Positions 1,514 through 50,618 of a stretch of DNA of 64,000 nt are shown here, in pieces. Positions within the stretch are counted from its first letter, which is position 1. Every line of letters starts with the position of its first letter. Below the pieces are notes generated by a model. It worked only from the letters and a program-made list of their open reading frames with translations. It was not told the origin of the DNA and ran no database searches. The translations under genes were made by a program, and so were the position numbers. Origin of the DNA: an uncultured candidate division Zixibacteria bacterium (lineage in GTDB: Bacteria; Zixibacteria; MSB-5A5; GN15; FEB-12). The stretch lies in contig CAVTJJ010000004.1 of assembly GCA_963735035.1 (NCBI GenBank), positions 448,001 through 512,000 of the forward strand. Reading direction: 5' to 3'.

Positions 1514-1518
1514 TATGG

Positions 1519-1995: not shown

Positions 1996-2220
1996 TCCGC
2001 ATTCCTGTTGGACTCAGATAGAATCGCGCGAAGGTTAGCTCGTACAGGCGATGGCGTCAGCTGAAAACTTACTGGATGTAGGTCGGGTTTGAGCATGATT
2101 CAATTGAGTGAAGAACCCTACACAACGCCACACAAGAAAACCGGCAGGGTTCTAGCCCTGCCGATCAGTTAAGTCGAGTAGTGAGCCGCTACGAGTTGAG
2201 CGCACAGCCCGACACAGGCT

Positions 2221-3021
2221 CTACTTGCGCTCATCTGTCGGCCGGGTCTTTTCGAGTGGTAGCAGGACTGGCGGGATCGAAGGGATCTTGCCGTGATATT
2301 GGTGCCGCAAAGCTTCTTTTGCCACAGGTTCCAATAGGTTGAAGATATAGGAGTACAGGATGTCGGTGTTTGATCCAAATGTGTTCACCGGCGCGTTGCT
2401 CAGTGCAACCACTTCTTTTCCATCAAAACCTACTCGCCTTACTGCTATGCCACGGCTGTGCGGGTTTATTGGGATCGTGTCAGGGCTGGAAAGGACTTCA
2501 GACATGAGCCCGAGTTGTGCTGTGATCCACTCCTCGGTCTTTGAATTGGCTTCGGCCGAAATGGGAACGTGGATCTCATCCATCCCCTCGTAAGTCAGAA
2601 AAGAACCGATCGCGAGTAGTCCGCTATCTGTGCATACCAGCGCATCGCACATGTAACTGGGTCCGTCTACAGCGCCAACTTCGCAAGAATAAAGGACGCG
2701 GCTAATGTGAAACAAAGAATCACAACGGGACCAGAATTGACCCGGTTCGTCTCGCTGGAACCAGCCATCAATGATCTCACGCGACCAAATTGTCATAATA
2801 CTATTGGGTGATTCTCGAAACTGATTGTCCATCAGGCTGTCGACAAGCTGCTCGTATGCGGCTTGGTTGTAGATGAAACTGGTATCTGTCGCATTAGCAC
2901 AGAAGCTGCACTCATTGCTGCCACTGGATTGGCATCCGAGCCAGACCAGGGAGATCCAGCATACCACGACGATTATGCCTACCCAATTGCGGTTGAATGA
3001 TAACTTGAGCCATCGTCCCAT
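2221..3021 (-). CDS. Hypothetical lipoprotein
   Basis: Signal peptide with lipobox-like WLGC; GGAG RBS upstream. Confidence 0.55.
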   Translation of the reverse strand: MGRWLKLSFNRNWVGIIVVVCWISLVWLGCQSSGSNECSFCANATDTSFIYNQAAYEQLVDSLMDNQFRESPNSIMTIWSREIIDGWFQRDEPGQFWSRCDSLFHISRVLYSCEVGAVDGPSYMCDALVCTDSGLLAIGSFLTYEGMDEIHVPISAEANSKTEEWITAQLGLMSEVLSSPDTIPINPHSRGIAVRRVGFDGKEVVALSNAPVNTFGSNTDILYSYIFNLLEPVAKEALRHQYHGKIPSIPPVLLPLEKTRPTDERK

Positions 3022-3109
3022 TTCACACTCCTGCTTTGACGAGAAGATACCCGTGTTTTGGCAATGATGTCAGCAGAACATTCATCCAGAGCAGGAAAAC
3101 AAGACGAAC

Positions 3110-3545
3110 ACGGCCGCGAGGCCGTCACACCGGAGAAAGCCGGTGCCCAGTTATGACTGCAGAGGCAGCACAACAATGTTCAAGATTATGATCGAAAGGA
3201 GGGGCCGAACATAGGATCCAGTTCTCTTGCCACCACAACTGGGTCCCGACTTTCGTCGGGATGACGGGGCTTCGCCCCGTTTCTTTCCTGTCTTGCGCCC
3301 ACAAGAAGACCGGCAGGGTTGGAACCCTGCCGATCATGTTTGAGTGCAAATGTGGATCTGCCGCGTCGGACCGGGCACAAACAAAATGCCGTCAGGCAGA
3401 GACGCCTGACGGCACACAGTTGTGACTTGAAACAAAAGACCCGGCAGATGTGGACATCTGCCGGGCACGTTTTGTGGACTTTTATCTTCACCCACCCGAA
3501 GGGTGGGCCATCAAGGGGCAGACGAGACGTCTGCCCCCCACCTAT
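3110..3545. repeat. Composite REP/MITE cluster
   Basis: ~170-bp element GGCCGTCACACCGG..CCCAGTT...AACTGGG..GATGACGGGGC, homologous to 51771-51943, followed by four other palindrome families seen elsewhere in the window. Confidence 0.75.
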
Positions 3546-3550
3546 CAGCC

Positions 3551-4633
3551 CTACTCGGCCACGGTCGGGCTGCTCAGTTCCTTCTTCAGGTTCTCGATCA
3601 CATCAACCGGAGTAGCATCGATATCACTCATCACCGCCAGATAATATGACACGAAATCACCCATCTGGATCAGGTTGAACAGGCGCTGCATGGGCGTCTC
3701 ACCCGTAGCATACAGGTCTATTACCATGATATCCTGCTCTTCGATCAATCTCTTCACCACATCCATGCGGGCGGAGACTTTCTCGTGATCGTCCTCACTC
3801 CGGAGATTCAGCACGATCAACTGTTCCTTCTGTTCGAAAGAGAGAGCCGACCAACCGACCAGTTCGTTGTGATTGAATTCCGGATAGACATTGGAAAAAG
3901 CCAGAATCTTCGAGTTCTCACAGACCTGGGTCTTCCAGCGCATCGCCGCGACATCGGTCAGAGTCGGTCCGGCGTAGATAATCGGAATCTTGCCGTGAAT
4001 GAGTTGAGCCAGTTGCTTGGCCGGGTTAGCCTGGCTAAGTGAGCTTTCGGCCATTCGTTCGCGAGTGCTCTTGAGATGCTCAATCGTTCCGCGAATGAGT
4101 TCGGTGGCATTCTTGGCCAGCCCGACTTTCTCCAGGAAGACCATCAACGGCACGAACGAATAGCCCAGCGCGGCGCGCGGCTGTAGTCCGCCCGGCAGTT
4201 TGAGCATCGGAATTTCGTTTAACTGGGCGACTTCTTCAAGCAGTCCGCCGGTGGTCATGACAACAATCATGGCCCCACGTCCGAGGGCGTCATCGATAGC
4301 CGACAGGGTCTCCTCGGTATTGCCGCTGTATGACGAGACGATCACCAGCGATTCGTCGTCGACAAACTCCGGAAGAGCATAGTTGCGACAGACCTGGAAC
4401 GGGATGACCAGTTCCCGGGTGAGGAGGGAGCGGGCGATATCGCCGCCGATGGCCGAGCCGCCCATGCCGACCGCGACCACGTTGCGGATATCGGGGAACT
4501 CGTTGGCCGGAACGTTCCAGCCGCCGGCCATCTTGAGGGCTTTCGCCATCTGTTCCGGCAAATCGAAAATAGCGTTGTGCATGTTGCCGGGGTCAAGCGC
4601 CCGGATGGCGTCTAAATCGTCAAGCTGTGCCAA
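3551..4633 (-). CDS. Bifunctional phosphoglucose/phosphomannose isomerase (SIS fold)
   Basis: GMGGSAIGG, SYSGNTEET, PRAA, RWKTQVCENSK and PEFNHNE motifs. Confidence 0.9.
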   Translation of the reverse strand: MAQLDDLDAIRALDPGNMHNAIFDLPEQMAKALKMAGGWNVPANEFPDIRNVVAVGMGGSAIGGDIARSLLTRELVIPFQVCRNYALPEFVDDESLVIVSSYSGNTEETLSAIDDALGRGAMIVVMTTGGLLEEVAQLNEIPMLKLPGGLQPRAALGYSFVPLMVFLEKVGLAKNATELIRGTIEHLKSTRERMAESSLSQANPAKQLAQLIHGKIPIIYAGPTLTDVAAMRWKTQVCENSKILAFSNVYPEFNHNELVGWSALSFEQKEQLIVLNLRSEDDHEKVSARMDVVKRLIEEQDIMVIDLYATGETPMQRLFNLIQMGDFVSYYLAVMSDIDATPVDVIENLKKELSSPTVAE

Positions 4634-4659
4634 GATTCCGTCCTTGCTAACAAATAAAG

Positions 4660-6420
4660 TTACGCGTTTTCAATCGTGTTTCTATAACTCTGTATCCGTC
4701 GCATCGCGGCGACGGCGCTCTGGCTCGACAACACCGGGCCAACCAGACCCTTTACCGAGCCGGCGTCAATCTTTCGAATTAAGCGACAAGAGTCAAATAC
4801 CTTGTTTGGGTTCATCGATAATCCGGTGACCCCCATTCCGACAAATAAAATTATTCCCAGCGGGTCGCCGGCCACTTCGCCACAGACGCAGACCGGCTTC
4901 TTGAGGCGGCGACAGGCCCTTATAGTCATGTCCACCAGGGTCAAGACAGAGGGGTGGAAGGGGTTGTACAGGCTGGCCACCCGGTCGTTGGCCCGGTCGG
5001 CTGACATGGTGTACTGGGTCAGGTCGTTGGTGCCTATATGGACGAAATCGGCCAGCTCGGCCAGCGGTCCGGCCATGAGCGCTGCCGAGGGGACCTCGAC
5101 CATGACGCCCACCCGGATATTCTCGTCAAACCCCAGTCCGGCCCGGCGCAGCTCAAGCATCGCCTGTGAAATCAGTTTCTTGGCTTTGCGGAGTTCGCCG
5201 ATATCGGCAATCATCGGCAGCAGGATACTGGTATTCCGACGGGTCGATGACCGCAGAATGGCCCGAACCTGCGCTTTGAACACTTCGGGCATTTCGAGCA
5301 TCGAGCGGATTCCGCGCCAGCCGAGAGCCGGATTAGGCTCGATGAACTGCGGGTCGCCGGAGCGAACTTTGTCCGAGCCGAGATCAAAAGTGCGGAATAT
5401 GACGTGAGACGACTCAAACCGGGCCGCGATCCGGTCATAAAAGCGGAACTGAGCTTCCTCGTTGGGGGCCTCTTCGCCTTCAAGATAGAGAAACTCGGTG
5501 CGATAAAGGCCGACCGGAATCTGCTTGCTGGCCAAAATGTCATCAATCGGGCCGGGGAATTCGAGATTGGCAGCTATCTGGACCTGAACGCCATCGGCGG
5601 TGCGAGGCGGGATTTCGGTAATCTGTTTGATCCGGTTGATAATCGCCGGACCGAGCTTAACGCGCCTCTTCTCGTATTCACCCCACTCCCGGTCGGTCGG
5701 ATTGATTATAACCTGACCGAGGGAACCATCGACAATCATCCGGCACCCGGCCGTCGCCTTAGTCAGAATCTGAGGAGCTGCAACCATCGGTATCAAGAGC
5801 GAGCGGGCGATCAAAGCGGTGTGAGAATGGGCGCCACATTCTGCGACCACAAACCCGGCCGCTTTACGATCGCGGTAGTCTAATACGTTTCCGGGGCTGA
5901 GTGACGGGACTACCAGGATCGTATGGGCATCAAACGGTGTAGTCGATTTCTCGCCGACACCGGCCAGATGCGACAGCACCCGGTCCGCGACCGAGTCGAT
6001 CTCCTGTGCGGACTGACGCAGATACGGGTTCTCGGCCTGCCGCAATTGATGAGTATTCTGTCTCACCCAGAGGTTGTAGATGTAGGCGGCGTTGCGATGC
6101 TGGCGGGCAATCTCTTCTCTGACGTTATCGAGAAAGGCCTCGTCGGTCGCTATAAGTACCTGTGCTTCAAAGACATTGGATATGGAGCCGTCCATTTTAC
6201 GGCTCGCGGCATGCTGCAACTTGCGGAGTTCTTTCGCGGTTTCGGCGACAGCTTTATCAAGGGCGGCGATTTCAAGATCGACTTCGGAAGCCTTGACCGG
6301 CTTTTCGGCAACATCGAGAAAGCCCGGAATGATCACCTGGGCATGCCCCAAGGCGATTCCGGAAGATATTGGTATCCCTCTGATTACTTTACGCTTACCT
6401 GTTTCAGCACCCATTGACAA
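4660..6420 (-). CDS. ptsI: PTS enzyme I (PEP-protein phosphotransferase)
   Basis: SHTALIARSL (phospho-His), GLYRTEFLY, EPNPALGWRGIR, IGTNDLTQY, CGE. Confidence 0.92.
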   Translation of the reverse strand: MSMGAETGKRKVIRGIPISSGIALGHAQVIIPGFLDVAEKPVKASEVDLEIAALDKAVAETAKELRKLQHAASRKMDGSISNVFEAQVLIATDEAFLDNVREEIARQHRNAAYIYNLWVRQNTHQLRQAENPYLRQSAQEIDSVADRVLSHLAGVGEKSTTPFDAHTILVVPSLSPGNVLDYRDRKAAGFVVAECGAHSHTALIARSLLIPMVAAPQILTKATAGCRMIVDGSLGQVIINPTDREWGEYEKRRVKLGPAIINRIKQITEIPPRTADGVQVQIAANLEFPGPIDDILASKQIPVGLYRTEFLYLEGEEAPNEEAQFRFYDRIAARFESSHVIFRTFDLGSDKVRSGDPQFIEPNPALGWRGIRSMLEMPEVFKAQVRAILRSSTRRNTSILLPMIADIGELRKAKKLISQAMLELRRAGLGFDENIRVGVMVEVPSAALMAGPLAELADFVHIGTNDLTQYTMSADRANDRVASLYNPFHPSVLTLVDMTIRACRRLKKPVCVCGEVAGDPLGIILFVGMGVTGLSMNPNKVFDSCRLIRKIDAGSVKGLVGPVLSSQSAVAAMRRIQSYRNTIENA

Positions 6421-11083: not shown

Positions 11084-11644
11084 ATGAACGATTCCATCTT
11101 CTTCCGACGTCAAAGCAAGCGGGCATATCTGGCGAAGGCCATCCCCGATGACGCCCTGGACCGCATCTATGAAAAAGTCCGCTGGTCGCCGTCGTGCAAC
11201 AACAACCAGCCCTGGCGGTTTGTGTTCGTGTTCGATCCGGAGCAACGCGCCCGATTCATGACCGCCCTGCCCAAGGGGAACCAGTGGGCAGGGGCCGCAC
11301 CGGCGCTGATAGCGGTATGCGGCCGTCAGGTCGATGACCACACCCGCGACGACGATCCAGTGATGTATTACCAGTTCGACTGTGGTCTCGCGGTGATGTC
11401 GTTACTGCTGGCGGCCACCGAAGAAGGTCTGATGGCGCACCCGATGGCGGGGTATGATGCCCTCGCGTTGCACGATGTGCTCGAGATTCCAGCGGAGTAT
11501 CATGTCATGTGCATTATTGCGATGGGGTATCCGGGGTCGATTAATACGCTTGATGAACGCACGCGCCTGAAAGACGAAGCACCGAGGACGCGCAAGGAAC
11601 TGACGGAGATTATCTTCACCGACCGATTCGTCCGCAATTCGTAA
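11084..11644 (+). CDS. Nitroreductase-family protein
   Basis: R.S.R, SPSCNNNQPWRF, DCGLA motifs; GGAGG RBS before ATG 11084. Confidence 0.88.
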   Translation: MNDSIFFRRQSKRAYLAKAIPDDALDRIYEKVRWSPSCNNNQPWRFVFVFDPEQRARFMTALPKGNQWAGAAPALIAVCGRQVDDHTRDDDPVMYYQFDCGLAVMSLLLAATEEGLMAHPMAGYDALALHDVLEIPAEYHVMCIIAMGYPGSINTLDERTRLKDEAPRTRKELTEIIFTDRFVRNS

Positions 11645-11837
11645 TTACGGTATATCTGCGGGCGGCACACTGCCTGCCCCAGACTTGATCGGGGGTCCTC
11701 GTGTGCCCCTTGACGTAAAACGTTTGTGTGAGCTGGAAACGGGGCAGACCAGGAGGTCTGCCGCCCACTATCGATTCTACCTGTTGACAGGACCACCCGC
11801 CGACATTTATATTCGCAAAAAAGAAACGGGGATCGGT

Positions 11838-13466
11838 TTGATTCGTCTCGGATTAGCAGCGATTATACTTTTGACAGTGGTTGGTCTCGTACCCGGCACA
11901 GTCTCTGCCGGCGAGACCGACAGCACTAAGTTTCGGATTCAGGACTATATACCGGACAGGATTTCCGATTTCGAATGGAAACTTGACGGATTGGCGAGTG
12001 CCCGTGACGGCTCCGGCGAGCAACCCACAATTCATCATAATTTTTCAAAGTACTATCGTGAGGCCGAATCCTGGGAATCGAACTCTCGCACTCTCGAAAT
12101 TGCCAACAACTGGCGCTATAGATACGAGTCGCGTCAGGGCTTCGTGGATCTTAATCTCGGCCTAAGCACAGACTTCTATCATGATGAGTATGACAACGTT
12201 GACTCCACAGTTGACACCATCGGTCTCTGGCAGATCGCAAGCCATGAACAGCCCTATACATCTGCTGCTTACCACGTTCCGCTGGCGGGTGAAATTCGCA
12301 GATACGTATTTTCCAATACTTTTGTGACAGCGGTCGGCGATTTGTATTACTCGTATTACCGGAATAAGTCCAAAGAGTTGACCAACACTCATCTGGAAAG
12401 GCCCGATAGCTTGTCGAGCCTGACTGAGATGACTGATGTAGAAGAAGAGGTAGCGACACGCCGGACTAGCCGAAACCTTGATTTCGTAGGTGAGATTCGT
12501 TTGGGTTGGGGACGTGTATACGAGGGCAAGTACGCCGCTACTGCATTGTATGTCACGAATGAACTAAAGAAAGCGCGGCTTCTCGCCAGGGACCCCGGCC
12601 GTTCCGAGATGCTCTCTTTGACCAAACAGATTCACGCCTATCGGGAGGGCCATTCCTGGGATCGCCGTGAGTATCGCGCCAGTTCTTTGCAGGCCATCCT
12701 CGCGAATCTCCATTCCGCGGGTCTGATTGCCGACGAAAGTGCATACGCTTTATTATGTGTGGAGGATGTACTTGATTACTTTCCCGCCGGCAGCAGACGC
12801 TTTGGGTGGGATATTCAGGCCGGATTTGGCGGCCATGACCGCTATTACAACTACGAGACTGACCAGGAAACAAGACGGTGGACCACCACATCACTCTGGA
12901 ATCAGGACAGCACCTGGATTGCAGACACGATCAGCGCCACCTACGTTGAGGAACAAAAGACTACGCATACCAGAGAATTCGCTCCTACGGATCATCTGGT
13001 CCTGCAGATGGGTTACTACCGGCCGCTTTCGCCAAGATGGCAATTCAATTTCTCGGCCCGCTCCTGGTGGTTCCTTAACCGGAACACCCAACCTGAGAAC
13101 ATTGATTACCTGCCTGGTTATAAGTACTGGCGGACTTTTGATCGCGTAGTGATGTCCGGTGAGACTGAAATTCAATATTTGTATGACGCCAGGACCGCCT
13201 TGCTCTTGAACGCTTCGTTGATAGACACCACGAGAACCGATAAATACCGGAGCTACCATACAGAAGAGATTATTGGTTGGAAGATTCACAGCCGGATCTT
13301 TCAGATGCGTCTGGGGGGGACATACCGAATGACTCCATCCACAACTCTATCCGTTAATTGGCAGTACTTGAAGTATCTCAGTACCGTAACGCAAGTCGAT
13401 TTGGAGACCAGGAGCAAATCGAAGCGAGCTTATCTCTCGTTCGGCATCACCCACTGGCTGTTCTGA
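11838..13466 (+). CDS. Hypothetical exported protein, possibly an outer-membrane beta-barrel
   Basis: TTG start downstream of TTGACA-N18-TATATT; signal peptide (..TVSA); aromatic-rich strands; C-terminal Phe (THWLF). Confidence 0.55.
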   Translation: MIRLGLAAIILLTVVGLVPGTVSAGETDSTKFRIQDYIPDRISDFEWKLDGLASARDGSGEQPTIHHNFSKYYREAESWESNSRTLEIANNWRYRYESRQGFVDLNLGLSTDFYHDEYDNVDSTVDTIGLWQIASHEQPYTSAAYHVPLAGEIRRYVFSNTFVTAVGDLYYSYYRNKSKELTNTHLERPDSLSSLTEMTDVEEEVATRRTSRNLDFVGEIRLGWGRVYEGKYAATALYVTNELKKARLLARDPGRSEMLSLTKQIHAYREGHSWDRREYRASSLQAILANLHSAGLIADESAYALLCVEDVLDYFPAGSRRFGWDIQAGFGGHDRYYNYETDQETRRWTTTSLWNQDSTWIADTISATYVEEQKTTHTREFAPTDHLVLQMGYYRPLSPRWQFNFSARSWWFLNRNTQPENIDYLPGYKYWRTFDRVVMSGETEIQYLYDARTALLLNASLIDTTRTDKYRSYHTEEIIGWKIHSRIFQMRLGGTYRMTPSTTLSVNWQYLKYLSTVTQVDLETRSKSKRAYLSFGITHWLF

Positions 13467-14477: not shown

Positions 14478-14609
14478 TGTCATGTACTATTATTATATAT
14501 TTTGTCTTCGCGCGCCAGTGATTATTGACGGATCGCTGTCAACCCCGATATATTCCGGCCGTTAAGAATGAACGCTAAGAAAGCTCATAATGATAGAAGG
14601 GATTCAGCC

Positions 14610-15801
14610 ATGAGCAACAAAGTCAGAGTAGCCATTATCGGCGTCGGCAACTGCGCCTCATCGCTGGTGCAGGGTGTCGAGTTTTATAAGAAGGCCAAGG
14701 ACGAAGATAAAGTCCCCGGTCTGATGCATGTCAATCTCGGCGGCTATCACATTCGCGACATCGAGTTCTCAGCCGCGATCGATATCGACAAGAACAAGGT
14801 CGGCAAGGATCTATCCGAGGCGATCTACACCTGGCCGAATTGCACCTACAAATTCTGCGATGTGCCGAAATCGGGCATCAAGGTCCAGCGCGGCATGACC
14901 CACGACGGTCTGGGTCACTACCTCAGCCAGATCATCGAGAAGGCCCCCGGCGACACGGTTGACATCGTGAAGCTGCTCAAGGACACCAGGACCGACGTCG
15001 TGGTCAACTACCTTCCGGTCGGTTCGGAAGAAGCCACCAAGTGGTACGTCGAGCAGATTCTGGACGCCGGTTGCGGTCTCGTGAACTGCATCCCGGTCTT
15101 TATCGCGCGAGAAGCTTACTGGCAGAAGCGGTTCAAGGAGCGCGGATTGCCGGTGATCGGTGACGACATCAAGTCGCAGGTGGGTGCGACCATCATGCAC
15201 CGGATACTGACCCGTCTGTTCCTGGAGCGCGGCGTGCATCTCGACCGGACCTCGCAGCTTAACGTCGGCGGCAACACCGACTTTTTGAACATGTTGGAGA
15301 GATCTCGTTTGGAGTCCAAGAAAATCTCCAAGACCAACGCCGTGACCAGTCAGCTCGACTATGAAATGAGCGCCGAGCAACATTCACATCGGACCGTCGG
15401 ACTACGTCGAATGGCTTCAGGACCGGAAGTGGGCCTACATTCGTATGGAAGGGACCACGTTCGGCAACGTGCCGCTCAACGTCGAGCTCAAGATGGAAGT
15501 CTGGGACAGCCCGAACTCGGCCGGTGTGGTTATCGACGCTGTTCGCTGCTGCAAGCTGGGTCTGGACAACGGCCTCTCGGGGGCCCTGATAGAGCCGTCG
15601 TCGTACTTCAAGAAGTCCCCGCCGGTTCAGTACACCGATGAACAGGCCCGTCAACTGACCGAGGAATTCATTGCCAAGTACGGTTGGAAACAGGCCGGGC
15701 AGAAGCAGCCGCTGAAAGTTGCGGCGCGCAAGCCGCAAAAGGCCAAGACGGCAACAGCCAAATCGACCGGTACCAAACGGGTGGTGAAGACAAAAAAGTA
15801 G
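14610..15801 (+). CDS. ino1: myo-Inositol-1-phosphate synthase (one +1 frameshift at ~15378, probably a sequence error)
   Basis: [43 protein letters not shown]; continues [26 protein letters not shown] in the shifted frame. Confidence 0.9.
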
Positions 15802-22714: not shown

Positions 22715-24114
22715 ATGGACTACAAAATTCGAACCAAAGTTTCCCGCATACTGATCGATGACGCCGTCCCGGCGGATACGGCTATTACTGTTCTTGGCTG
22801 GGTCAAGACGGTCAGGGTATCCAAGGCCGTGGCTTTTGTCGAGATCAACGACGGCTCCTGCATGGGGAATCTTCAGGCGGTTGTGGCCGATCCAGACAAA
22901 TACCCGGTGCTGGAAAAGTTGCTCACCGGGGCGTCGGTGCGGGTCAAAGGGAAATTGGTGGCGTCGCAGGGCCAGGGCCAGAAATACGAACTGGCGGTCG
23001 AGACCCTCGATCTGATCGGCGAGGCCGACCCGACCTATCCGCTTCAGAAGAAACGCCACACGTTTGAATATCTTCGCGAGATCGCCCATCTCCGGCCGCG
23101 CACCAATACGTTCGGGGCGGTCGGCCGGATGCAGCTCCAAGATCGCCTACGCCATTCACAAGTACTATCAGGAACGCGGGTTCTTCTATGTCCATACGCC
23201 GATGATTACGGCGTCGGACTGCGAAGGAGCCGGCGATATGTTCCGCGTGACCACGCTCGATCTGGACAACATCCCGCGCAAGGAAGGCAAGATCGATTGG
23301 GACGCTGATTTCTTCGCCTCGGAAACGTACCTGACCGTGTCGGGGCAGCTCGAGGGCGAGCTGATGGCGACTGCGCTGGGGGATATCTACACGTTCGGGC
23401 CGACTTTCCGCGCCGAGAACTCCAACACCAGTCGCCATGCCTCGGAGTTCTGGATGATCGAGCCGGAGATGGCCTGGGCGGAGATCGATGACAACATGGA
23501 TCTGGCCGAGGATTTCCTGAAATACCTGTTCCGGTTTGCGCTCGAAGAATGCGCCGACGACATGGCGTTCTTCAACCAGTGGGTGGACAAAGATGTCATT
23601 CGGACGCTCGAGAGCGTGGTCAATTCGCAGTTCGAGCGGATCACTTATACGCAGGCGATTGACATTCTCAACAAGTCGGGCGAGAAGTTTGAGTACCCGA
23701 CCGAATGGGGCTCAGATCTTCAGAGCGAACACGAACGCTTCCTGACCGAGAAGAAAATCGGGCGACCGGTAATAGTGTCCGACTATCCCGGAGAAGATCA
23801 AGTCGTTCTATATGAGAATGAACGAGGACGGCAAGACGGTCGCCGCGATGGATGTGCTGGTGCCGAAAGTGGGCGAGATCATCGGCGGGTCACAGCGCGA
23901 GGAACGCTACGACGTGCTCATGGACCGGATCAAGGCGAAGGGGATGACCGGCATGGAGAACTACTACTGGTATACTGATATTCGTCGCTGGGGTTCGGTG
24001 CCGCACGCCGGGTTCGGACTGGGGTTCGAACGCGCGATGATGTACATCACGGGCATTTCGAATATCCGCGATATCCTGACTTTCCCGCGAGTTCCGCGGT
24101 GGGCGAAGTTCTAG
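22715..24114 (+). CDS. asnS: Asparagine--tRNA ligase (two +1 frameshifts, ~23132 and ~23790)
   Basis: [75 protein letters not shown]. Confidence 0.93.
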
Positions 24115-24198
24115 GTTGGGTCTATGGTGGTTGGTGTACGTCCTCGTGCACCAACCTGTCTTGTAGGGCAGGTCCGCTTCGAACCTGCACTTCCACAC

Positions 24199-24308
24199 AA
24201 GAAAAGACGCCCGTTCTGGACGGGCGTCAAGGGTGCTCCGTAGAGCAAAACCTTCGAGACGGTTGTCTCTTACTGAGACTTGACTAACAACCGCCGCTTG
24301 AGTACATT
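24199..24308 (-). ncRNA. tracrRNA
   Basis: Minus strand reads AATGTACTCAAGCGGCGGTTGTTAGTCAAGTCTCAGT (anti-repeat, 24308-24272), then hairpins GAGAC-AACC-GTCTC and GCTC-TACG-GAGC, then terminator GACGCCCGT-CCAGA-ACGGGCGTC-TTTTCTT. Confidence 0.85.
24280..24308 (+). promoter_or_regulatory. Candidate cas9 promoter embedded in the anti-repeat
   Basis: TTGACT-N17-TACATT, 45 nt upstream of the cas9 ATG (RBS AAGGGGA). Confidence 0.55.
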
Positions 24309-24314
24309 ACTGGC

Positions 24315-24343
24315 TAAATACACTACGTTCGACCACCTGTCAA
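24315..24343 (-). promoter_or_regulatory. Candidate tracrRNA promoter
   Basis: TTGACA-N17-TATTTA on the minus strand; predicted +1 falls at the first base of the anti-repeat (24308). Confidence 0.55.
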
Positions 24344-24353
24344 GGGGAAATAC

Positions 24354-27300
24354 ATGAACCACGACAACGGTGAATCCAAACATCTGGGAATCGACCTTGG
24401 CCCAAATTCCATCGGGTGGGCGTTGGTTGAAGCGCCAGACAACAATACTCATCAGCTTGTCGTATCGGGTGTTCGCGTCTTTGAAGCGGGACTTGATAAA
24501 CTAGAATCCGACGGCAAAGGGGAATCCCGCAATGTCGCCCGACGTGCCGCGCGTCAGTCGAGGCGGGGAATTGAAAGAAGAGGCAGAAGGCTCACAAAAA
24601 TAGCCAACATTCTGCAGCGAGCGGGCCTTTTACCTGAAGGTGATCTGACCGACAGCGAGATCAGGCACAAGATATTGACGGAGCTTGATCTCAAGGTGGG
24701 CAATCCATACTCACTTCGTGCGCGTGCCCTTGATGAGAAATTGTCCAAACACGAACTCGGTCGCGCCTTGTTCCATTTGGCGCAAAGACGCGGCTTCCTC
24801 AGTAACCGCAAATCGGCGCCCAAGAAAGACGACGAGACTGGCAAAGTCAAAGCAGGTATAAGCCAGTTGAAGAAAGATATTGAAGCGTCTGGCTCGCGCA
24901 CACTCGGCGAGTATTTCAGTCGCATAGATCCGTTTCAACACCGGATACGGACGCACTACACGCATCGCTCGATGTATGAGCATGAGTTCAATCTCATCTG
25001 CGAGTCACAGAGTCGTTTTCATGCAGATGTATTGACAGATGATCTTAGAAAGATTCTTCACAAGGCGATCTTCTTTCAGCGGCCGCTCAAGAGCCAATCG
25101 CATCTGATTGGCAAATGCGAACTGGAACCGAAATACCGCCGCGCCCCTTGGGCGTTGCTCTGTGCCCAGCAATTCCGGTATCTGCAAACAATCAACAATC
25201 TGCGAGTGCTTGATGTCCCGAACCGCGAATTTCCGGAGTTGACCCCGGCCGAGCAATTCGCATTGGCAGAAAGGCTGGAATATCAGGAAGAGATGACTTT
25301 CGGTGCGGCGCGCAAGTTGTTGAACCTGCCCAAAACAAGCAAATTCAGCATTGAATTGGGCGGCGAGAAGAAGATCAAAGGCAACAGGACTGCGGCCTGC
25401 CTTGCCAAGATATTCGGCCTGGAGCGATGGCAAGCCATGACATCGGAAGAGCGCGACGCGGTGGTGGAAGACTGGCGAAGCATTGTCAAGGAAGAGACGC
25501 TCAAGAAACGCGGCATGAACAAATGGGGTCTTGACGAAGTCGCCGCAGAAGAACTGAGCCACCTGAATCTTGAAGAGGGCTATTGCTCAATGTCGCGTCA
25601 GGCTATCGCAAAACTACTGCCGCGACTTAGCTGTGGTGAAGCCCTGCAAACCGCTATCAAAACCGTGTACCCGGAACGCTTTGAACGCGTTGGTGCGGCT
25701 GTTGATACCCTGCCTCCAGTACGGGAATACTTCCCCTCGTTGCGGAACCCAATAGTGGAACGCGCTCTTACGGAATTGCGGCAAGTAGTGAACGCCATTG
25801 TTCGCGAGCATGGAAGACCCGCCGTGATTCGAGTTGAGCTGGCACGCGAACTGAAACAGCCGGCGAAGAGTCGCGAGGATACTATCAAGCGGATGCGCGC
25901 CAACGAAAAAGACCGGGCGAAGGCGGCGGAAAGAATACTTGAGGAAGCGAGAATCGCCAATCCGTCTCGGAGTGATATCCTCAGGGTTTTGTTGGCTGAG
26001 GAATGTGAGTGGACTTGCCCTTACACCGGCAGGCATTTCGGTATGACTGAAATCGTCGGAGATTCGCCGCAATTCGATATCGAGCATATCATCCCGCTCC
26101 ATAGGTGCCTTGACGACTCTTACATGAACAAGACCCTCTGCTATGCCGACGAAAACCGAAACCGCAAACGTGATCGAACTCCGTTTGAGGCCTACGCAGG
26201 CACCCCACAGTGGGATGAAGTTGTCGCACGGGTAGGAAAGTTCAAGGGCACGGCGGCAAGAGCCAAGCTGCAGCGCTTTCAGATGAAGCCTGAGGAGGTT
26301 GGGGCGTTGCTCGACAATTTTACTTCCCGGCAGTTAAACGATACCGCTTATGCCTCCCGAATGGCGAAGGAATATCTCGGACTTCTATTCGGCGGTCAGG
26401 ACAGCGACGGCATTGATGCCTCCAGTCATCGTCGCGTGCAGTGTACCAACGGCCAGGTCACAGCTTTTCTGCGCAATGTCTGGAGCCTCAACAGCATTCT
26501 TGGCGACGGACCCCGCAAGACCCGCGACGACCACCGCCATCACGCTGTTGACGCCGTCGTGGTCGCCCTGACCGATGCCGGCGCGGTCAAACGTCTGAGC
26601 GACGCGGCTTCTCGGGCCAAAATCGAGCGGCGGCGGCAGTTCGGCAAGGTGCCCCTACCGTGGGAGACATTCGATCAGGATGTTCGGCAGAGCATCGACA
26701 ACCTGGTCGTTTCGCACCGGCTCGATCACCGGGTAAGAGGTGCGTTTCACGAGCAGACTTTTTATGGTCGCCCAAGCCTCGGAGACGATGGCAAGCAGTA
26801 CGTACACACTAGGAAGCCGATTGAGAGAATCTCAGCCAAGGACATCAAAGACATTGCCGACAAGGCGGTGCGTGAATGTATCGAAAAGGCGCTCAGTGTC
26901 CTGGGGCAATCGAATCCTGCTGATGCTTTCAAAGACCCGGCCAGTCATCCGATCCTCAGCGGTGGAAACGACACCAGCAGGCCGATTCATCGGGTGCGAT
27001 TGAAGTCCTCTCTGAGGACTTTCGAGATCGGTTCCGGGCATCGTTTGAGGCATGTGGTACCAGACCGCAACCACCACATGGAGGTCGTGGAATTGCTCGA
27101 TGATAATGGGAACACCACCGGTTGGGAAGGGCATGTCGTTGATCTGTTTGAGGCGCGCCGTCGACTCGACCGGCGTGAACCGGTCATCAAGAAAGACCAC
27201 GGGTCGGGGAAATGCTTTCTATTTTCTCTGGCCAACGGCAACGTTATTGAATTGGACCAAGACGATGGTTCTCGTGGACTTTGCATCGTCCGAACCATCG

Positions 27301-27461
27301 AGACAAGTTCCAATATTAGGTGGGTTAGTATAAGAGATGCCCGGAAGTTGGCTGGTCGATCTAAAGCCGGTGAGACGGCTCGGCCGGATCCACTCCGAAA
27401 GAAGAACTGCTGCAAAGTAACAGTCGATCCGCTCGGCCGAGTCCGGCGAGCGCGTGATTAG
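24354..27461 (+). CDS. cas9: Compact type II-C Cas9 (1035 aa)
   Basis: RuvC-I LGIDLGPNSIGWA, Arg-rich bridge helix, HLAQRRGFLSNRK, RuvC-II RVELARE, HNH DIEHIIP..DDSYMNKTLC...N, RuvC-III HHAVDA. Confidence 0.96.
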   Translation: MNHDNGESKHLGIDLGPNSIGWALVEAPDNNTHQLVVSGVRVFEAGLDKLESDGKGESRNVARRAARQSRRGIERRGRRLTKIANILQRAGLLPEGDLTDSEIRHKILTELDLKVGNPYSLRARALDEKLSKHELGRALFHLAQRRGFLSNRKSAPKKDDETGKVKAGISQLKKDIEASGSRTLGEYFSRIDPFQHRIRTHYTHRSMYEHEFNLICESQSRFHADVLTDDLRKILHKAIFFQRPLKSQSHLIGKCELEPKYRRAPWALLCAQQFRYLQTINNLRVLDVPNREFPELTPAEQFALAERLEYQEEMTFGAARKLLNLPKTSKFSIELGGEKKIKGNRTAACLAKIFGLERWQAMTSEERDAVVEDWRSIVKEETLKKRGMNKWGLDEVAAEELSHLNLEEGYCSMSRQAIAKLLPRLSCGEALQTAIKTVYPERFERVGAAVDTLPPVREYFPSLRNPIVERALTELRQVVNAIVREHGRPAVIRVELARELKQPAKSREDTIKRMRANEKDRAKAAERILEEARIANPSRSDILRVLLAEECEWTCPYTGRHFGMTEIVGDSPQFDIEHIIPLHRCLDDSYMNKTLCYADENRNRKRDRTPFEAYAGTPQWDEVVARVGKFKGTAARAKLQRFQMKPEEVGALLDNFTSRQLNDTAYASRMAKEYLGLLFGGQDSDGIDASSHRRVQCTNGQVTAFLRNVWSLNSILGDGPRKTRDDHRHHAVDAVVVALTDAGAVKRLSDAASRAKIERRRQFGKVPLPWETFDQDVRQSIDNLVVSHRLDHRVRGAFHEQTFYGRPSLGDDGKQYVHTRKPIERISAKDIKDIADKAVRECIEKALSVLGQSNPADAFKDPASHPILSGGNDTSRPIHRVRLKSSLRTFEIGSGHRLRHVVPDRNHHMEVVELLDDNGNTTGWEGHVVDLFEARRRLDRREPVIKKDHGSGKCFLFSLANGNVIELDQDDGSRGLCIVRTIETSSNIRWVSIRDARKLAGRSKAGETARPDPLRKKNCCKVTVDPLGRVRRARD

Positions 27462-27476
27462 CCTGCCCAAACCATA

Positions 27477-27967
27477 AATGTACTCAAGCGGCGGTTCGTG
27501 TCAAGCCCCAGCTGTCTCTACCTTCTCACGCCGTGGGGCGTAAATGTACTCAAGCGGCGGTTAGCTGTCAAGTCCCAGCTGGACTACGTATTGATTGCCC
27601 TGTTGCTGGAATGTACTCAAGCGGCGGTTAGTGTCAAGTCCCAGCGCCGTGGGGCGTACAGGCGCAATCGTCAAAATGTACTCAAGCGGCGGTTCGCGTC
27701 AAGTCCCAGCTCAGTACGTATTCCATGATTAAGTCCTTTCAATGTACTCAAGCGGCGGTTCGCATCAAGTCCCAGCGCAGTCGGTGGGCTGATTCGGTAT
27801 CTACCAATGTACTCAAGCGGCGGTTCACGTCAAGTCCCAGCTCACCGTTCACCTGTCCGCTACCTAGTCGAATGTACTCAAGCGGCGGTTTGCGTCAAGT
27901 CCAGCCGACTTGAAGGGATCAGTTATGACCAACGCAATGTACTCAAGCGGCGGTTCGCGTCAAGTCC
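27477..27967 (-). CRISPR. CRISPR array: 8 repeats (35-37 nt, last truncated), 7 spacers (29-30 nt)
   Basis: Plus-strand consensus AATGTACTCAAGCGGCGGTTCGCGTCAAGTCCCAGC starting at 27477, 27543, 27610, 27675, 27741, 27806, 27871, 27936; orientation inferred from tracrRNA complementarity. Confidence 0.95.
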
Positions 27968-28068
27968 GCCTGACCTACGATTATCCCATTGAACCGCTTC
28001 GCTTCAGCCTCTTTTGGCCCCCTCAAACAATTCTAAATCCTACCCCTCGCTTTGCCGATATAAGAGAC

Positions 28069-28869
28069 ATGGGCTACAAGTCTGACTTACGCCAGGTCCT
28101 GATTGCTGTCTTCGGGCTCGCTCTGAGCGCGCTCGTGATCGGCTGCAATGGCGCGCCGACCAAGAGCAGCAACGAGGACAAATACCGCGTCGACGGTCTG
28201 GTTGTACAGAACCTGAACGTCGACACGGCGTTCATTGCCGCCCGATTCGCCCGCAACGACACCTCGATTACCAACGCCTCGATCAAACTCGCCGGTACGC
28301 CTCTGGGCTATTTCGCGTCGCTTCGAGGCATCCTCGCGGCCTATCAGTCCTGGCTGAAACCGGCAGATTCGCTGGCGGGATCAAGTGTCTATCTTCGTGT
28401 CGCCGACGCCAGTCGCTTCACTGATAGTCTGCCGCTGGGTATCGTAGGCACTTTCGGCCTGACCGACAACTTCCAGCCGCCCAACCATCATCTCCAGGGT
28501 ATGACTAATTATGTCTCTCTGGAATGGACCGCGGCCGCCAACGCGGATAGCTACGTGCTAGCCGCCGTCAAGACGTCACTGGTCGGCACCGGAGCAGGCT
28601 ACAGCGCCCAGGTGACAGCGACCGGCGTGGCCGGAACTATTCCCGCGGATGCCTTCATGAATCCAAGCACCAACCTTCCCGACACCGGGCTTTACAATAT
28701 CTATGTATATGCCTTCAACGACGCCCCCGACTCGGCTTTAGCGACCAAACTCCTGCCGGTGCCGTGGCCAATTCAGGTGACCGAGAATATCGCTCGAACG
28801 TCTCTGAAGGGTCGGTTCGGGTCTATCACCGTGGCGCTCAAGGACACGGTTCGGGTGCTCGCTCAGTAG
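28069..28869 (+). CDS. Hypothetical lipoprotein
   Basis: MGYKSDLRQVLIAVFGLALSALVIGC lipobox. Confidence 0.65.
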   Translation: MGYKSDLRQVLIAVFGLALSALVIGCNGAPTKSSNEDKYRVDGLVVQNLNVDTAFIAARFARNDTSITNASIKLAGTPLGYFASLRGILAAYQSWLKPADSLAGSSVYLRVADASRFTDSLPLGIVGTFGLTDNFQPPNHHLQGMTNYVSLEWTAAANADSYVLAAVKTSLVGTGAGYSAQVTATGVAGTIPADAFMNPSTNLPDTGLYNIYVYAFNDAPDSALATKLLPVPWPIQVTENIARTSLKGRFGSITVALKDTVRVLAQ

Positions 28870-29109
28870 CTTCCAGGCTTCAGGGCTTATTGGAAGAAGT
28901 CTCCTCAAGTCACTTTCATGCATTTGCTATATCAGCCGGCAGATGTGGGCATCTGCCGGGCACCTGGTGAGAATCGCTGTCGGGCAGATGTGGGCCCGCC
29001 GCGGCGGGCCGGGCACTAGTCAGGCATCTGCAAGTCATCTGCCGGGCGCTAGTTCTTCCCAATCCGCATTTTAGTTGCCCGTACGGATCGTCACCGATAG
29101 GTTCGTTTC

Positions 29110-30045
29110 ATGGCGGACATGAACGAACTTATCAGCCGATTACGGCAGCTCGATACCGAAAAGGTCAATCCGAACACGGTCGATATCGATCGACTGTCAC
29201 CCGTCGAAATCGCGCGTAAGATAAATGCCGAGGACAAGACGGTTGCAACTGTAGTCGAAGCTGCTCTTGAGCCGTTAGCGAGTGCGGCGCAAGTCTTTGC
29301 CGAAACCCTCAAGAACGGCAAGCGAGTCTTCTATGTCGGCGCGGGGACTTCCGGGCGGTTGGGGGTGCTCGACGCCGCCGAATGTCCGCCGACTTTCGGT
29401 ACCGATCCCAAACAGATAATAGGCTTGATCTCGGGCGGGTACGAGACCTTGATCCTCTCCAAAGAAGGGGTTGAAGACGATGTTCGAGCGGCTGTTGTGG
29501 ACCTTCAGTCTCACCATCTGGCTACGGGCGATTTCGTGATCGGGCTGGCTGCCTCCACTCGAACCCCGTACACGCTTTCGGCTTTGCGATACGCCAAGAC
29601 CTGTGGCTGCCGGACCGCGTTCATCGTATGCAATCTCGCGGGTGGAATAGAAATCAGACCGGACATACTTATAGAATTGCCGGTGGGACCGGAAGCCATT
29701 ACCGGTTCGACTCGTATGAAATCGGGCACGGCCGAGAAGATGGCGCTGAACATCATTTCTACCACCGCCATGGTGCTCTTGGGGAAGACCTACGGAAATC
29801 TGATGGTTGATCTTCAGGCGCGCTCCGAAAAGCTGGCGGCAAGATCACGCAAGATTCTTATCGAGCTGCTGCAAGTCGATCTGCCCAAGGCCGAGGAACT
29901 GCTGCAGCTTTCCGGTGGATCGGTCAAACTGGCGATAGTTATGCACTGGCAGAAATGCGACCGGGCCGAAGCGGAGAAGCGCCTGGCGCAAGCGGGGGGG
30001 TTCATTTCGCGATTGACCAAAGTGCCGCCGGCACAATTGCCCTGA
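29110..30045 (+). CDS. murQ: N-acetylmuramic acid 6-phosphate etherase
   Basis: GAGTSGRLGVLDAAECPPTFG, GPEAITGSTRMKSGTA.K, GNLMVD. Confidence 0.93.
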   Translation: MADMNELISRLRQLDTEKVNPNTVDIDRLSPVEIARKINAEDKTVATVVEAALEPLASAAQVFAETLKNGKRVFYVGAGTSGRLGVLDAAECPPTFGTDPKQIIGLISGGYETLILSKEGVEDDVRAAVVDLQSHHLATGDFVIGLAASTRTPYTLSALRYAKTCGCRTAFIVCNLAGGIEIRPDILIELPVGPEAITGSTRMKSGTAEKMALNIISTTAMVLLGKTYGNLMVDLQARSEKLAARSRKILIELLQVDLPKAEELLQLSGGSVKLAIVMHWQKCDRAEAEKRLAQAGGFISRLTKVPPAQLP

Positions 30046-46481: not shown

Positions 46482-47997
<1,516 letters not shown>

Positions 47998-48143
47998 GGG
48001 AGGGTTCTCCTGTTATGTGAGAGCTTGCATATTTTGATCTTATACGCCGGCCGGGGGCTGGGCGATTGTACGCCGTCACACGGGTATTCTCCCGACCGGG
48101 ACGACCAAGATAGGTGACGGGTGCAAAGAAGGCAAGAGGGGGG

Positions 48144-48558: not shown

Positions 48559-49527
48559 TTACACTGCGAAATCCATGTAGTAGGTTTCGTCGTCTATCTT
48601 GTAGAAGACAACATCTGTGCGGCCATATCGCTCAAGATGTTCCCTGAGCAGATACGTTCCTAAAGGGACAGAAAGTCGATTTCTGAAGTACTCACCCAAG
48701 AGACTGTTGTTGTGAGGGGTGTGAATTGCCTTATCATTGTCTTGCGCGCGCGAACAAATGAATACTTTCCCATCATCCGTTAGAACCGTAAACTGAATAG
48801 CCTTCGGAGGGAAGAAGTCTGACTTGTATACTTCGGCACGCAAATTGATATAAGCCTGATTCGGCTCGCGCCCTTCCCGTTGTCCCCAATTGAGACCAGA
48901 GTGCGTGCCAAGTTCACCTGTACGTGTAACAAATGAAACACGCACAGACCGCAACCCGACTACATTTGGTGAGACCGCATCCATTTCCTCTGTCGCTGTC
49001 CTTATCAGTTCTCGGCGGCGTCTGTAAAGGTCCTCATTGAAGACAGTTACAAATGCCTCGGCATCTTGATGCGTGCAGTAAATGGTCTCATTGCACAACT
49101 CTTGGTAATAGCGGCGCGCATCTTCGGCTGGAGCCATCGTCAGGGCTTCTCTTTGGTTTTCTCCGAATGCGGTCTGAGTATAATTAGCCGATCCAACATA
49201 GGCAGACAACGGTCTGTCTTCGCGAAGCCAGATATATACCTTTGAATGCGCGGGTGGACGTTTGACGAGATAACTACACTCAAAGATTCCCGGGAAATCT
49301 TGCTCAACAAGTTTGCATAACCCTCTGTGATTTCCAACAGTCAAGCCGTCGACTGGACACATACCAACGATGAGCCCGACTCTAATGTTATCACGAATGG
49401 TCTTGGCTTCAGAAATGTGCCTAAATGCCATGGCTGCAGTCGCATACCCGGATACAACAAGGAGTTCATCTGCCCCTTGACGCAACGGGTCTATGAGAAC
49501 CCGTTCATAAAGATCTGTCACAATCAT
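48559..49527 (-). CDS. PLD-superfamily restriction endonuclease (NgoFVII-like)
   Basis: VSGYA, HSKVYIW...YVGSANYT (HxK..GSxN), C-terminal SGLNWGQ...AYI DNA-binding region; between a C5 MTase and vsr. Confidence 0.78.
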   Translation of the reverse strand: MIVTDLYERVLIDPLRQGADELLVVSGYATAAMAFRHISEAKTIRDNIRVGLIVGMCPVDGLTVGNHRGLCKLVEQDFPGIFECSYLVKRPPAHSKVYIWLREDRPLSAYVGSANYTQTAFGENQREALTMAPAEDARRYYQELCNETIYCTHQDAEAFVTVFNEDLYRRRRELIRTATEEMDAVSPNVVGLRSVRVSFVTRTGELGTHSGLNWGQREGREPNQAYINLRAEVYKSDFFPPKAIQFTVLTDDGKVFICSRAQDNDKAIHTPHNNSLLGEYFRNRLSVPLGTYLLREHLERYGRTDVVFYKIDDETYYMDFAV

Positions 49528-50618
49528 ACCAACAATGCCTTGTCTACTGGTACTGACATATTAGCCTCGACGTATTCATATGGCACACCCGCAAGACTCT
49601 TTAGAATAGCTTCAAACACAACCTTGGCACCAAGCGGAGGGACTGCCATTCCGATCTGCTTTCTTACACTCTCCTTGGATCCGCAGAAGATGAAATCATC
49701 TGGAAAGGTTTGTAACCTTGCTCTTTCGCGGTTAGTTAGAGCCCGATTTTCTTTCCAATGGTAGACATGTGTGCCGCCCCCCCCGCTGCCTGTCACCGTG
49801 TAAGAAGGCTTATCTGGATGCAGACGCTTATATATCTGGCTAATACGTGCTCCGGTAATGTTAAGCTGTAGATTTTGTGGCACATTGGCTGTGAAGGCGT
49901 TCTCTCCGGGCTTTATGTATTTCAACCGCTCGATTACCACAGGTGATTGTTTTGTGAAGTCGTGGTTGGGGGCATCTACAGCAATCGGCGGGTCAGTAAG
50001 CGCTTTTCGGCTAGAGATGTCTGCTTCGGTGAAACGACTCGGCGACGGTACTTGATACTTGATATCAATATCGTCTCTGATTCCTACAATAAGAATCCTG
50101 TGGCGCGTTTGCGGGACGCCGTATTGCTCGAACTTATATAGGTTTGGATATAGGCGGTATCCTTTGTGGATAAACGCCAGCATAATTGCCTCAAGCGCAT
50201 TACCATCGTTCGAATTCCTCAGCCCCCCGACATTCTCAGCTAAGAACCACGTAGGTCTAAAATGGGCCAGAGCAAGCGCGCAGTACTTGTATAGCGGCCC
50301 AAATACTCCGTCCGTGCCTTTCTGCTCGCCGACAACGCTGAAATCGTTGCAGGGAAAGCCGAACGCAAGCGCATCGACGGGGGAAATCTTGTCGAGAACC
50401 CTAAAGTCCAGCTTTCTAATGTCCTTGCAGACCACTCTTCGTTTGTCTTCTGTTGATAAATTCTTGCGATAGGTTTCGCACGTGTCTTTGTCGTAGTCTG
50501 TTGCCCAGGCTAATCCGACCGCGTGAGCCTTTGTGGTTCCTGTAGCTCCCGCCAATTTGGCCCCCAGCCCCAACCCGCCGGGCCCGCAAAAGAGTTCACC
50601 TAACTTGTAAATCATCAC
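49524..50618 (-). CDS. dcm: DNA (cytosine-5)-methyltransferase
   Basis: LFCGPGG (I), GFPCNDFS (IV), ENV (VI), YGVPQ.R.R (VIII), RERARLQTFPD (IX), QIG.AVPP (X). Confidence 0.93.
   Translation of the reverse strand: MMIYKLGELFCGPGGLGLGAKLAGATGTTKAHAVGLAWATDYDKDTCETYRKNLSTEDKRRVVCKDIRKLDFRVLDKISPVDALAFGFPCNDFSVVGEQKGTDGVFGPLYKYCALALAHFRPTWFLAENVGGLRNSNDGNALEAIMLAFIHKGYRLYPNLYKFEQYGVPQTRHRILIVGIRDDIDIKYQVPSPSRFTEADISSRKALTDPPIAVDAPNHDFTKQSPVVIERLKYIKPGENAFTANVPQNLQLNITGARISQIYKRLHPDKPSYTVTGSGGGGTHVYHWKENRALTNRERARLQTFPDDFIFCGSKESVRKQIGMAVPPLGAKVVFEAILKSLAGVPYEYVEANMSVPVDKALLV

Follow-up and report, generated by a model that had tools for sequence, protein, structure and literature searches.

How does a CRISPR-Cas locus fare once it can no longer acquire spacers: does it persist as a working defense with a fixed memory, or is it merely on its way to being lost? 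This question is raised by a type II-C-like locus in a 64-kb stretch of DNA from an uncultured candidate division Zixibacteria bacterium (assembly GCA_963735035.1, contig CAVTJJ010000004.1, positions 448,001 to 512,000; hereafter, the window), in which a gene for trans-activating CRISPR RNA (tracrRNA), cas9 and a CRISPR array lie together at 24202-27971. We argue that this is probably a frozen, interference-only type II-C locus, from which cas1-cas2 were deleted and which has been kept by selection as a fixed-memory defense. The components of this reading differ in strength. Judging from the alignments, we have high confidence that a deletion of about 1.34 kb encompassing cas1, cas2 and the pre-array stretch is real, and moderate confidence, given the sequence features described below, that the module is still functional. 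Coordinates are positions in the window unless another contig is named, and the genome from which the window comes is denoted G000 where a label is needed.

The G000 genome (3,614,957 bases in 6 contigs, 96.9% complete) yielded no matches genome-wide to Cas1 (PF01867) or Cas2 (PF09827) in a search in which the positive-control genomes scored, and a k-mer scan of the same genome detected no second CRISPR-like array. The missing part can be delineated by comparison with the sister species in the same genus, represented by genome G002, where the order is tracrRNA, cas9, cas1 (an open frame of 297 aa), cas2, about 55 nt containing a hairpin, and at least 19 identical repeats. The alignment of the window with this locus ends at 27457 and restarts at 27477, leaving about 1.34 kb of G002 (3276-4617 of the reverse-complemented contig) without a counterpart. 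The Cas9 tree pairs G000 with G002 as sisters (support 100/99), with locus L035 joining them (100/100); G002 and L035 both carry cas1 and cas2, and G000 is nested with them, so that the loss in G000 is secondary and occurred after the split from G002. This tree has 14 rows, predates the order-wide survey described below and is drawn without G077, G091, G128, G129, G137, G140, G150 and G151, as well as the fragments L033 and L044.

The preliminary description of this DNA had reported a compact arrangement of tracrRNA, Cas9 and array, with repeat 1 starting only 15 nt past the cas9 stop and with cas1, cas2 and a leader absent. Its coordinates are borne out to the base and the spacing is exact (the TAG stop occupies 27459-27461 and repeat 1 starts at 27477), and both the profile search and the alignment with G002 support the absence of the two genes and of the pre-array stretch that would be the leader. 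The features of the locus and its surroundings are as follows.

24202..24308, minus strand: tracrRNA gene of about 107 nt, with the anti-repeat at 24308-24273 (36 nt), two internal hairpins, a terminator hairpin at 24228-24206 and a U-tail
24315..24343, minus strand: predicted promoter of the tracrRNA gene, read from the sequence, with a -35 hexamer TTGACA (24343-24338), a 17-nt spacer and a -10 hexamer TATTTA (24320-24315)
24280..24308, plus strand: promoter-like site in the anti-repeat DNA, TTGACT-N17-TACATT, facing cas9, from a consensus scan
24354..27461, plus strand: cas9, intact, 1035 aa, type II-C-like (TIGR01865, 703 bits)
27462..27476, no strand: junction of 15 nt, where G002 has cas1, cas2 and about 55 nt of pre-array sequence
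27477..27971, minus strand in the sense of the CRISPR RNAs (crRNAs): CRISPR array with 8 repeats, each of 35-37 nt, and 7 spacers of 29-31 nt
22715..24114, plus strand: left flank, asnS, in three frames through two +1 insertions near 23131 and 23790
28070..28869, plus strand: right flank, predicted lipoprotein gene, with a signal peptide and Cys lipobox read from the sequence and no Pfam match
29110-30045: murQ, after the lipoprotein gene (NF003915 match, 367 bits)

The interval between asnS and the lipoprotein gene has no room for a fourth gene of the csn2 or cas4 type. The same holds for the relatives: there, tblastn places matches to cas9, cas1 and cas2 in succession, with the array beginning after them, each within about 150 nt of the one before, leaving no space for such a gene.

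A survey of 160 genomes of the order identified a Cas9 match at E <= 1e-30 in 18, with none in the other 142. In 12 of the 18, cas1-cas2 lie directly downstream of cas9 (G002, G017, G018, G033, G038, G077, G091, G128, G129, G137, G140, G150), and in three the end of the contig hides the downstream region (G026, G030, G151). An intact cas9 that runs straight into an array, without cas1-cas2, was found in G000 and in one other genome, G034. At the latter locus, a tracrRNA accompanies an open cas9 frame, which is separated by some 15 nt from an array whose five repeats are not identical and in which one spacer is reduced to 24 nt; Cas1 was not found in the G034 genome, which is 76% complete. In the Cas9 tree, G034 is located outside the G000/G002/L035 clade, and it lost cas1-cas2 independently of G000. 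Six loci from metagenomes and GenBank (L035, L038, L040, L041, L043, L045) are all organized as cas9-cas1-cas2; among them, L043 is identical to the G140 locus and L038 and L040 score as G091 does, so that not all are independent.

Several of these related loci have peculiarities of their own. The last of the 18 genomes, G098, which belongs to the same family as G000, has only fragments of cas9 (L044 / L054, G098:C92, about 11126-12711). These correspond to Cas9 residues of about 335-502 and 676-1035, two copies of a 26-nt palindromic element replace the HNH region, and neither cas1 nor cas2 follows downstream; decay of the locus seems to have gone further here. In G038:C120 (L023 / L015, about 1301-4843, minus strand), Cas9, matching over residues 8-925 only, and Cas1 share one open frame of 1263 aa uninterrupted by stops, possibly a natural Cas9-Cas1 fusion without the Cas9 C-terminus or else a frame artefact. 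Locus L045, a complete cas9-cas1-cas2 with a tracrRNA and a Cas9 of 46% identity, resides on a 61-kb contig labelled Candidatus Bathyarchaeia archaeon (DATKVG010000197.1), which would mean a rare archaeal Cas9 or else an error in binning.

The Cas9 of G000 spans nearly the whole family profile. Residues 10-1029 match positions 2-1070 of the 1070 positions of TIGR01865 with 703 bits (cut-off 100), and the Pfam families RuvC_III, HNH_4 and Cas9_a are recognized. The closest solved structures are the 6jdq/6kc8/6je3 group of Neisseria II-C Cas9s, 6jdq being Nme1Cas9 of Neisseria meningitidis; 6jdq aligns over residues 10-747 (E = 1.3e-77), and II-A entries, of the 4cmp and 5f9r group, align only at residues 458-613. 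D14, H578 and N601 pair with D16, H588 and N611 of 6jdq, and E495 (the RuvC-II Glu) as well as H730 and D733 (the RuvC-III His and Asp) are identical in it. The retained motifs, whose catalytic roles in RuvC and HNH are those described in the Cas9 literature, thus comprise D14, E495, D575/H578, N592/N601 and H730/D733, and they are likewise kept in G002 and L035. By sequence, this protein appears to be a distant orthologue of 6jdq, is predicted to be nuclease-competent, and would be expected to perform RNA-guided DNA cleavage dependent on a protospacer-adjacent motif (PAM). The initial claim that all RuvC and HNH catalytic motifs are intact is therefore upheld by the alignment to 6jdq residues. 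The accompanying claim, of a small Cas9 candidate with complete guide components, stands only in its latter part, and there with the correction that the tracrRNA and the crRNAs are encoded on the minus strand, opposite cas9; at 1035 aa, the protein is of ordinary size for a II-C Cas9, the solved relatives having 1055-1095 aa and the relatives found here about 1018-1050 aa.

The anti-repeat (24273-24308) is the reverse complement of the repeat, with 20/20 identity at 24289-24308, and therefore the tracrRNA is read on the minus strand, from about 24308 down to 24202, ending with the terminator hairpin and a T-run. Upstream, TTGACA, a pattern chosen by the analyst, is present at the matching place in 12 of 14 related loci; a generic promoter scan made no call at the tracrRNA promoter because its -10 hexamer ends in A. 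The 3' part of the RNA, consisting of the two hairpins and the terminator, has a predicted folding energy of -34.9 kcal/mol (z = -5.43), a value that 0 of 200 shuffles equalled. Compensatory changes were detected in 8 of the 10 consensus pairs of the two hairpins in an alignment of 11 of the 14 relatives, which omitted G002 (no hairpin 2), L035 (a large insertion) and L033 (a divergent middle). Rfam gave no match in 23900-28300 at E <= 1. On the opposite strand of the anti-repeat (24280-24308, plus), the promoter-like TTGACT-N17-TACATT resembles the repeats and is located about 45 nt upstream of the cas9 ATG; this candidate from the consensus scan raises the possibility that cas9 may be driven by a repeat-derived promoter.

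The repeats of the array start at 27477, 27543, 27610, 27675, 27741, 27806, 27871 and 27936, with a period of 65-67 nt; the terminal one (27936-27971) has an outer end that is degenerate. All 9 copies of the 20-nt repeat core in the 3.6-Mb genome are at this locus, and a reversed control has 0. On the minus strand, the repeats read TTGAC[A/G]-N16/17-TACATT, and seven of the eight are called as sigma-70-type promoters, in a scan that placed 12 sites in the 4-kb region compared with 2.2 +/- 1.8 in shuffles. The crRNAs, as far as can be predicted from this orientation, must also come from the minus strand. The -35 hexamer is a perfect TTGACA in repeats 1-3, where it is made by loop substitutions, and TTGACG or TTGATG in the other repeats, and selection may even tune expression through these variants. 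Here the repeat contains a full -35/-10 pair, in contrast to the extended -10 that constitutes the Neisseria repeat promoter. Promoters embedded in repeats, with the array opposite to cas9, were reportedly described in Neisseria and Campylobacter II-C systems by Zhang et al. in 2013 and Dugar et al. in 2013. The available part of a paper on Flavobacterium psychrophilum (PMC10309648) describes complete loci and mentions repeat-encoded promoters in a figure legend.

The predicted crRNA:tracrRNA duplex consists of a 13-bp lower stem, an asymmetric internal loop (GCG in the crRNA, GUUA in the tracrRNA) and a 20-bp upper stem, with predicted energies of -51 to -61 kcal/mol for all 8 repeats. Six of the eight repeats differ from the consensus, and the 19 repeats on contig C84 of G002 are all identical. 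Across the eight repeats, the 20-nt part that forms the upper stem and contains the promoter shows 0 changes. Within repeats 1-7, 7 of the 8 substitutions fall at repeat positions 21-24, that is, in 4 of 36 positions (P = 1.5e-6 under uniform mutation, for positions defined after the data were seen). Mapped onto the duplex, 6 of the 8 are in the internal loop, and the remaining 2 turn a Watson-Crick pair into G·U (position 24 in repeat 5 and position 30 in repeat 1). Such a pattern is as expected if purifying selection acted on guide-RNA pairing. The A at position 21 of repeats 2 and 3 is also present in G002 and may represent one inherited state.

Four of the repeat variants are the four CpG-transition products of CGCG. 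Genome-wide hypermutation of CpG or CGCG was considered as their source and found to be unsupported (observed/expected 0.85 for CGCG and 1.19 for CpG). Systematic base-calling error at a methylated motif was also considered and appears unlikely, because the flanks around the variable positions are identical and yet six different variants occur in eight repeats.

The spacers presumably specify the targets of this Cas9. For the seven spacers, no protospacers were found in a viral collection by a search for exact matches of 22-30 nt, which used spacers 1 and 3 at full length and spacers 2, 4, 5, 6 and 7 by their 22 repeat-adjacent nt, and which by its nature misses targets with mismatches. Matches to the spacers elsewhere in the genome fall short of significance (at best 22 nt with 2 mismatches, E = 0.18), and no spacer is shared with the arrays of G002, L035 or L041. 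The last 13 nt of spacer 1 (27513-27542) are the same as the first 13 nt of spacer 3 (27646-27674). The two seem to derive from a single 46-bp target, on which their protospacers would overlap at an offset of 17 nt, and if so, the flank of the spacer 3 protospacer, that is, one PAM side, could be read from spacer 1.

Taken together, these features can be assembled into the following scheme, in which the transcription of tracrRNA and crRNAs and the processing of both are presumed. The tracrRNA would be made from its own minus-strand promoter, and the sigma-70-type promoter within each repeat would drive crRNA synthesis from the minus strand, yielding seven crRNAs, each from the upstream repeat. 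The repeat portion of a crRNA would pair with the anti-repeat of the tracrRNA through the lower stem, internal loop and upper stem, and Cas9 loaded with these guides would cut matching DNA. After the split from the sister species, the deletion of cas1, cas2 and the pre-array stretch would have frozen the spacer set, and the locus would since have been kept by selection as a fixed-memory defense.

How well does selective maintenance account for the data compared with simple decay, in which the locus would be leftover neutral DNA en route to loss, with Cas9 intact only because too little time has passed? We consider decay unlikely, although many observations are compatible with it and weigh against our own interpretation. 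The array is short, with 7 spacers compared with at least 27 repeats in G002; six of the eight repeats are off consensus, repeats 2 and 7 containing 1-nt indels and repeat 5 a -35 hexamer (TTGATG) that is weakened and was not called by the promoter scan; exact matching found no protospacers in the viral collection; and loss is common, given the absence of Cas9 from 142 of the 160 genomes of the order and its outright decay to fragments in G098. The repeat changes in G034, the second locus without cas1-cas2, also fall in stems. Apart from the post hoc definition of the repeat positions, all substitutions are transitions or within the CGCG motif, and a local mutational hot spot could mimic constraint; moreover, the window contains at least 4 frameshifting indels in 64 kb, so that some of the repeat differences, including the 1-nt indels, may be errors. 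The comparison of Cas9 with that of G002 (pN, the nonsynonymous proportion, 0.146; pS, the synonymous one, 0.714) gives dN/dS of about 0.07, a value that, with dS saturated, spans the whole G000-G002 divergence and not only the time after the loss. In residues 801-1035 (26754-27458), a partition made post hoc, unique changes number 37 in G000 vs 16 in G002, and they are balanced or reversed outside it; the C-terminal third contains the PAM-interacting region in the Cas9 of relatives, and the excess hints at relaxed or shifted constraint after adaptation was lost. Against decay, however, none of the repeat substitutions falls where it would disrupt pairing with the tracrRNA, which is itself intact, as are its promoter and hairpins. 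Overall, the Cas9 of G000 shows no faster rate of change (relative-rate test with L035 as the outgroup: 79 unique changes vs 67 in G002, p = 0.32), and the 3.1-kb cas9 frame remains open although neighboring genes, in the assembly or in the genome, carry frameshifts. In addition, G034 independently retains an intact cas9 beside a still more degenerate array.

Three further explanations appear far less probable. Cas1 and Cas2 could be supplied in trans from a replicon or a stretch outside the assembly, with the array still growing; the preliminary description had left the choice between this and a frozen module unsettled. Some space for such a source exists, in the form of about 3% of the genome and unbinned plasmids outside the 96.9%-complete assembly, and the available parts of two studies (PMC8092290, bioRxiv 10.1101/2024.10.25.620265) indicate that other CRISPR types use the adaptation genes of co-resident systems. 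With no Cas1 or Cas2 family match and no other array in the genome, however, the choice falls on the frozen module; the non-identity of the repeats argues against recent duplication by integration, unlike the at least 19 identical repeats on C84 of G002, and the pre-array stretch beside repeat 1 was deleted as well, all of which makes supply in trans highly improbable. A similarly slight chance attaches to the module having been repurposed to regulate host genes rather than to defend. Its retention without adaptation and the lipoprotein gene directly downstream invite this idea, as in Francisella Cas9 reportedly represses a lipoprotein gene, and an in-silico paper, in its available part, suggests that type II loci commonly contain small regulatory RNAs of this sort (PMC6199352). 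The spacers, however, have no significant match elsewhere in the genome (best E = 0.18), no extra small-RNA gene is seen, and all nuclease residues are kept. Finally, the true genome might contain cas1-cas2, with 1.3 kb dropped by the assembler. The assembly is indeed indel-prone, as seen in the two +1 insertions in asnS and in the split M32 peptidase and inositol-phosphate synthase genes, but the errors observed are 1-nt indels, not kilobase deletions; the junction is in unique sequence within a 1.63-Mb contig, and cas1 and cas2 are in none of the six contigs. Loss of adaptation long ago would agree with the divergence of the repeats, G034, assembled separately into about 480 contigs, has this architecture as well, and the same layout has been published for a finished genome, according to the available part of PMC10521337. 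We regard an artefact as the least probable of the explanations considered here.

A broader extrapolation of the selective-maintenance reading is that frozen Cas9 modules can persist long after the loss of cas1-cas2 as hard-wired, innate-like defense or as regulators, with selection acting per repeat on tracrRNA pairing and on the repeat-embedded promoter, and with two losses in one order marking a recurrent route. We put this forward tentatively, as a possibility that at present we would doubt more than endorse.

The genomic neighborhood indicates where the locus resides in related genomes. In G001, a genome of the same genus that is 77% complete and in which Cas9 was not found, asnS adjoins the lipoprotein gene, at a distance of about 270 nt, and murQ comes next; this interval is an empty site. 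In G002, the locus also adjoins asnS: contig C52 carries asnS, then a 1.4-kb segment and then the array, reversed. The whole locus would be inverted in G002 relative to G000 if C52 joins C84, as the shared array implies, and the lipoprotein gene of G002 is located elsewhere, so this region underwent rearrangement within the genus. The asnS-lipoprotein interval, compared in these relatives, is thus empty in one and rearranged in the other. The 1.4-kb segment (L072, G002:C52:18250-19670) contains a long minus-strand open frame and, save for a dispersed repeat of about 30 nt, has no counterpart in G000. The asnS orthologues of G001 and G002 are intact, with open frames of 472 and 469 aa. The genes in the window for an M32 carboxypeptidase (46485-48012, minus) and inositol-1-phosphate synthase (14529-15798, plus) are each split into two frames at a single profile position. 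The frameshifts are likely to be uncorrected long-read indel errors, with real pseudogenes as the alternative.

Short GC-rich hairpin elements at 24129-24156 and about 28931-28966 bracket the Cas9 locus. Dozens of copies are present in the G001 and G002 genomes, and the elements look like dispersed repeats of the repetitive extragenic palindromic (REP) kind. The cas9 contig of G002 ends close to the position that matches the left-hand copy of the window. About 21 kb from the Cas9 locus, the window encodes a restriction-modification pair, an NgoFVII-family endonuclease and a C-5 cytosine methyltransferase (48562-50624, minus).

If maintained as we propose, the locus is a well-documented natural case of fixed-memory Cas9 immunity. 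Moreover, asking whether repeat substitutions fall in the loop or preserve wobble pairing provides an easy way to judge from sequence alone if an orphaned array remains in use, one that is applicable to many CRISPR loci without adaptation genes. As a tool candidate, the module offers a complete guide set (crRNA, tracrRNA, Cas9), with a Cas9 of ordinary size and no obvious gain over characterized II-C enzymes.

Among the systems used for comparison, the G002 locus likewise has a Cas9 of 1035 aa (77% identical), the same anti-repeat, nearly the same repeat and an adjoining asnS, and, unlike G000, it has a tracrRNA without the second hairpin. Resemblance to Nme1Cas9 of Neisseria meningitidis extends to the size of about 1035-1090 aa, the aligned RuvC and HNH motifs, 36-nt repeats, spacers of about 30 nt and the lack of csn2 or cas4. 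The minimal II-C operon, according to the available part of the source, is cas9-cas1-cas2 (Chylinski et al. 2013, PMC3737331). The Cas9 motifs, the tracrRNA anti-repeat, the adjacent array and the absence of a fourth gene are all found here and, unlike in canonical II-C, cas1 and cas2 are absent, so that the minimal operon is not; the locus is therefore a reduced II-C derivative and not a complete member. That paper also reports solitary cas9 genes without an array or predictable small RNA in Bradyrhizobium sp. BTAi1, Nitrobacter hamburgensis and Bacillus cereus (PMC3737331). Like them, this cas9 has no other cas gene nearby, but it is accompanied by an array and a tracrRNA, apparently in working order. 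An archaeal Cas9, that of ARMAN-4, reportedly lacks cas1 and cas2 as well.

A published precedent is the II-C locus of Capnocytophaga ochracea, which, in the available part of PMC10521337, consists of a tracrRNA, CoCas9 and six repeats, in a genome with neither cas1 nor cas2; in a close relative, the locus retains both genes along with 44 spacers, and the authors conclude that adaptation was lost. As far as that text allows the comparison, both loci combine a tracrRNA, cas9 and a short array (8 repeats here, six there) with no cas1 or cas2, and both have a close relative with cas1-cas2 and a longer array (at least 27 repeats in G002, 44 spacers there). They differ in that the present locus belongs to another phylum-level lineage and has repeats of 36 nt vs 46 nt, and in that, per the same source, the CoCas9 nuclease was characterized biochemically, whereas the Cas9 described here is known from sequence alone. 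The architecture is thus already published, and this locus is a good but ordinary example of it, to which the present analysis adds a loss dated by the sister species, a third species whose site is empty, another, independent loss within the same order and the way in which the repeat substitutions are distributed.

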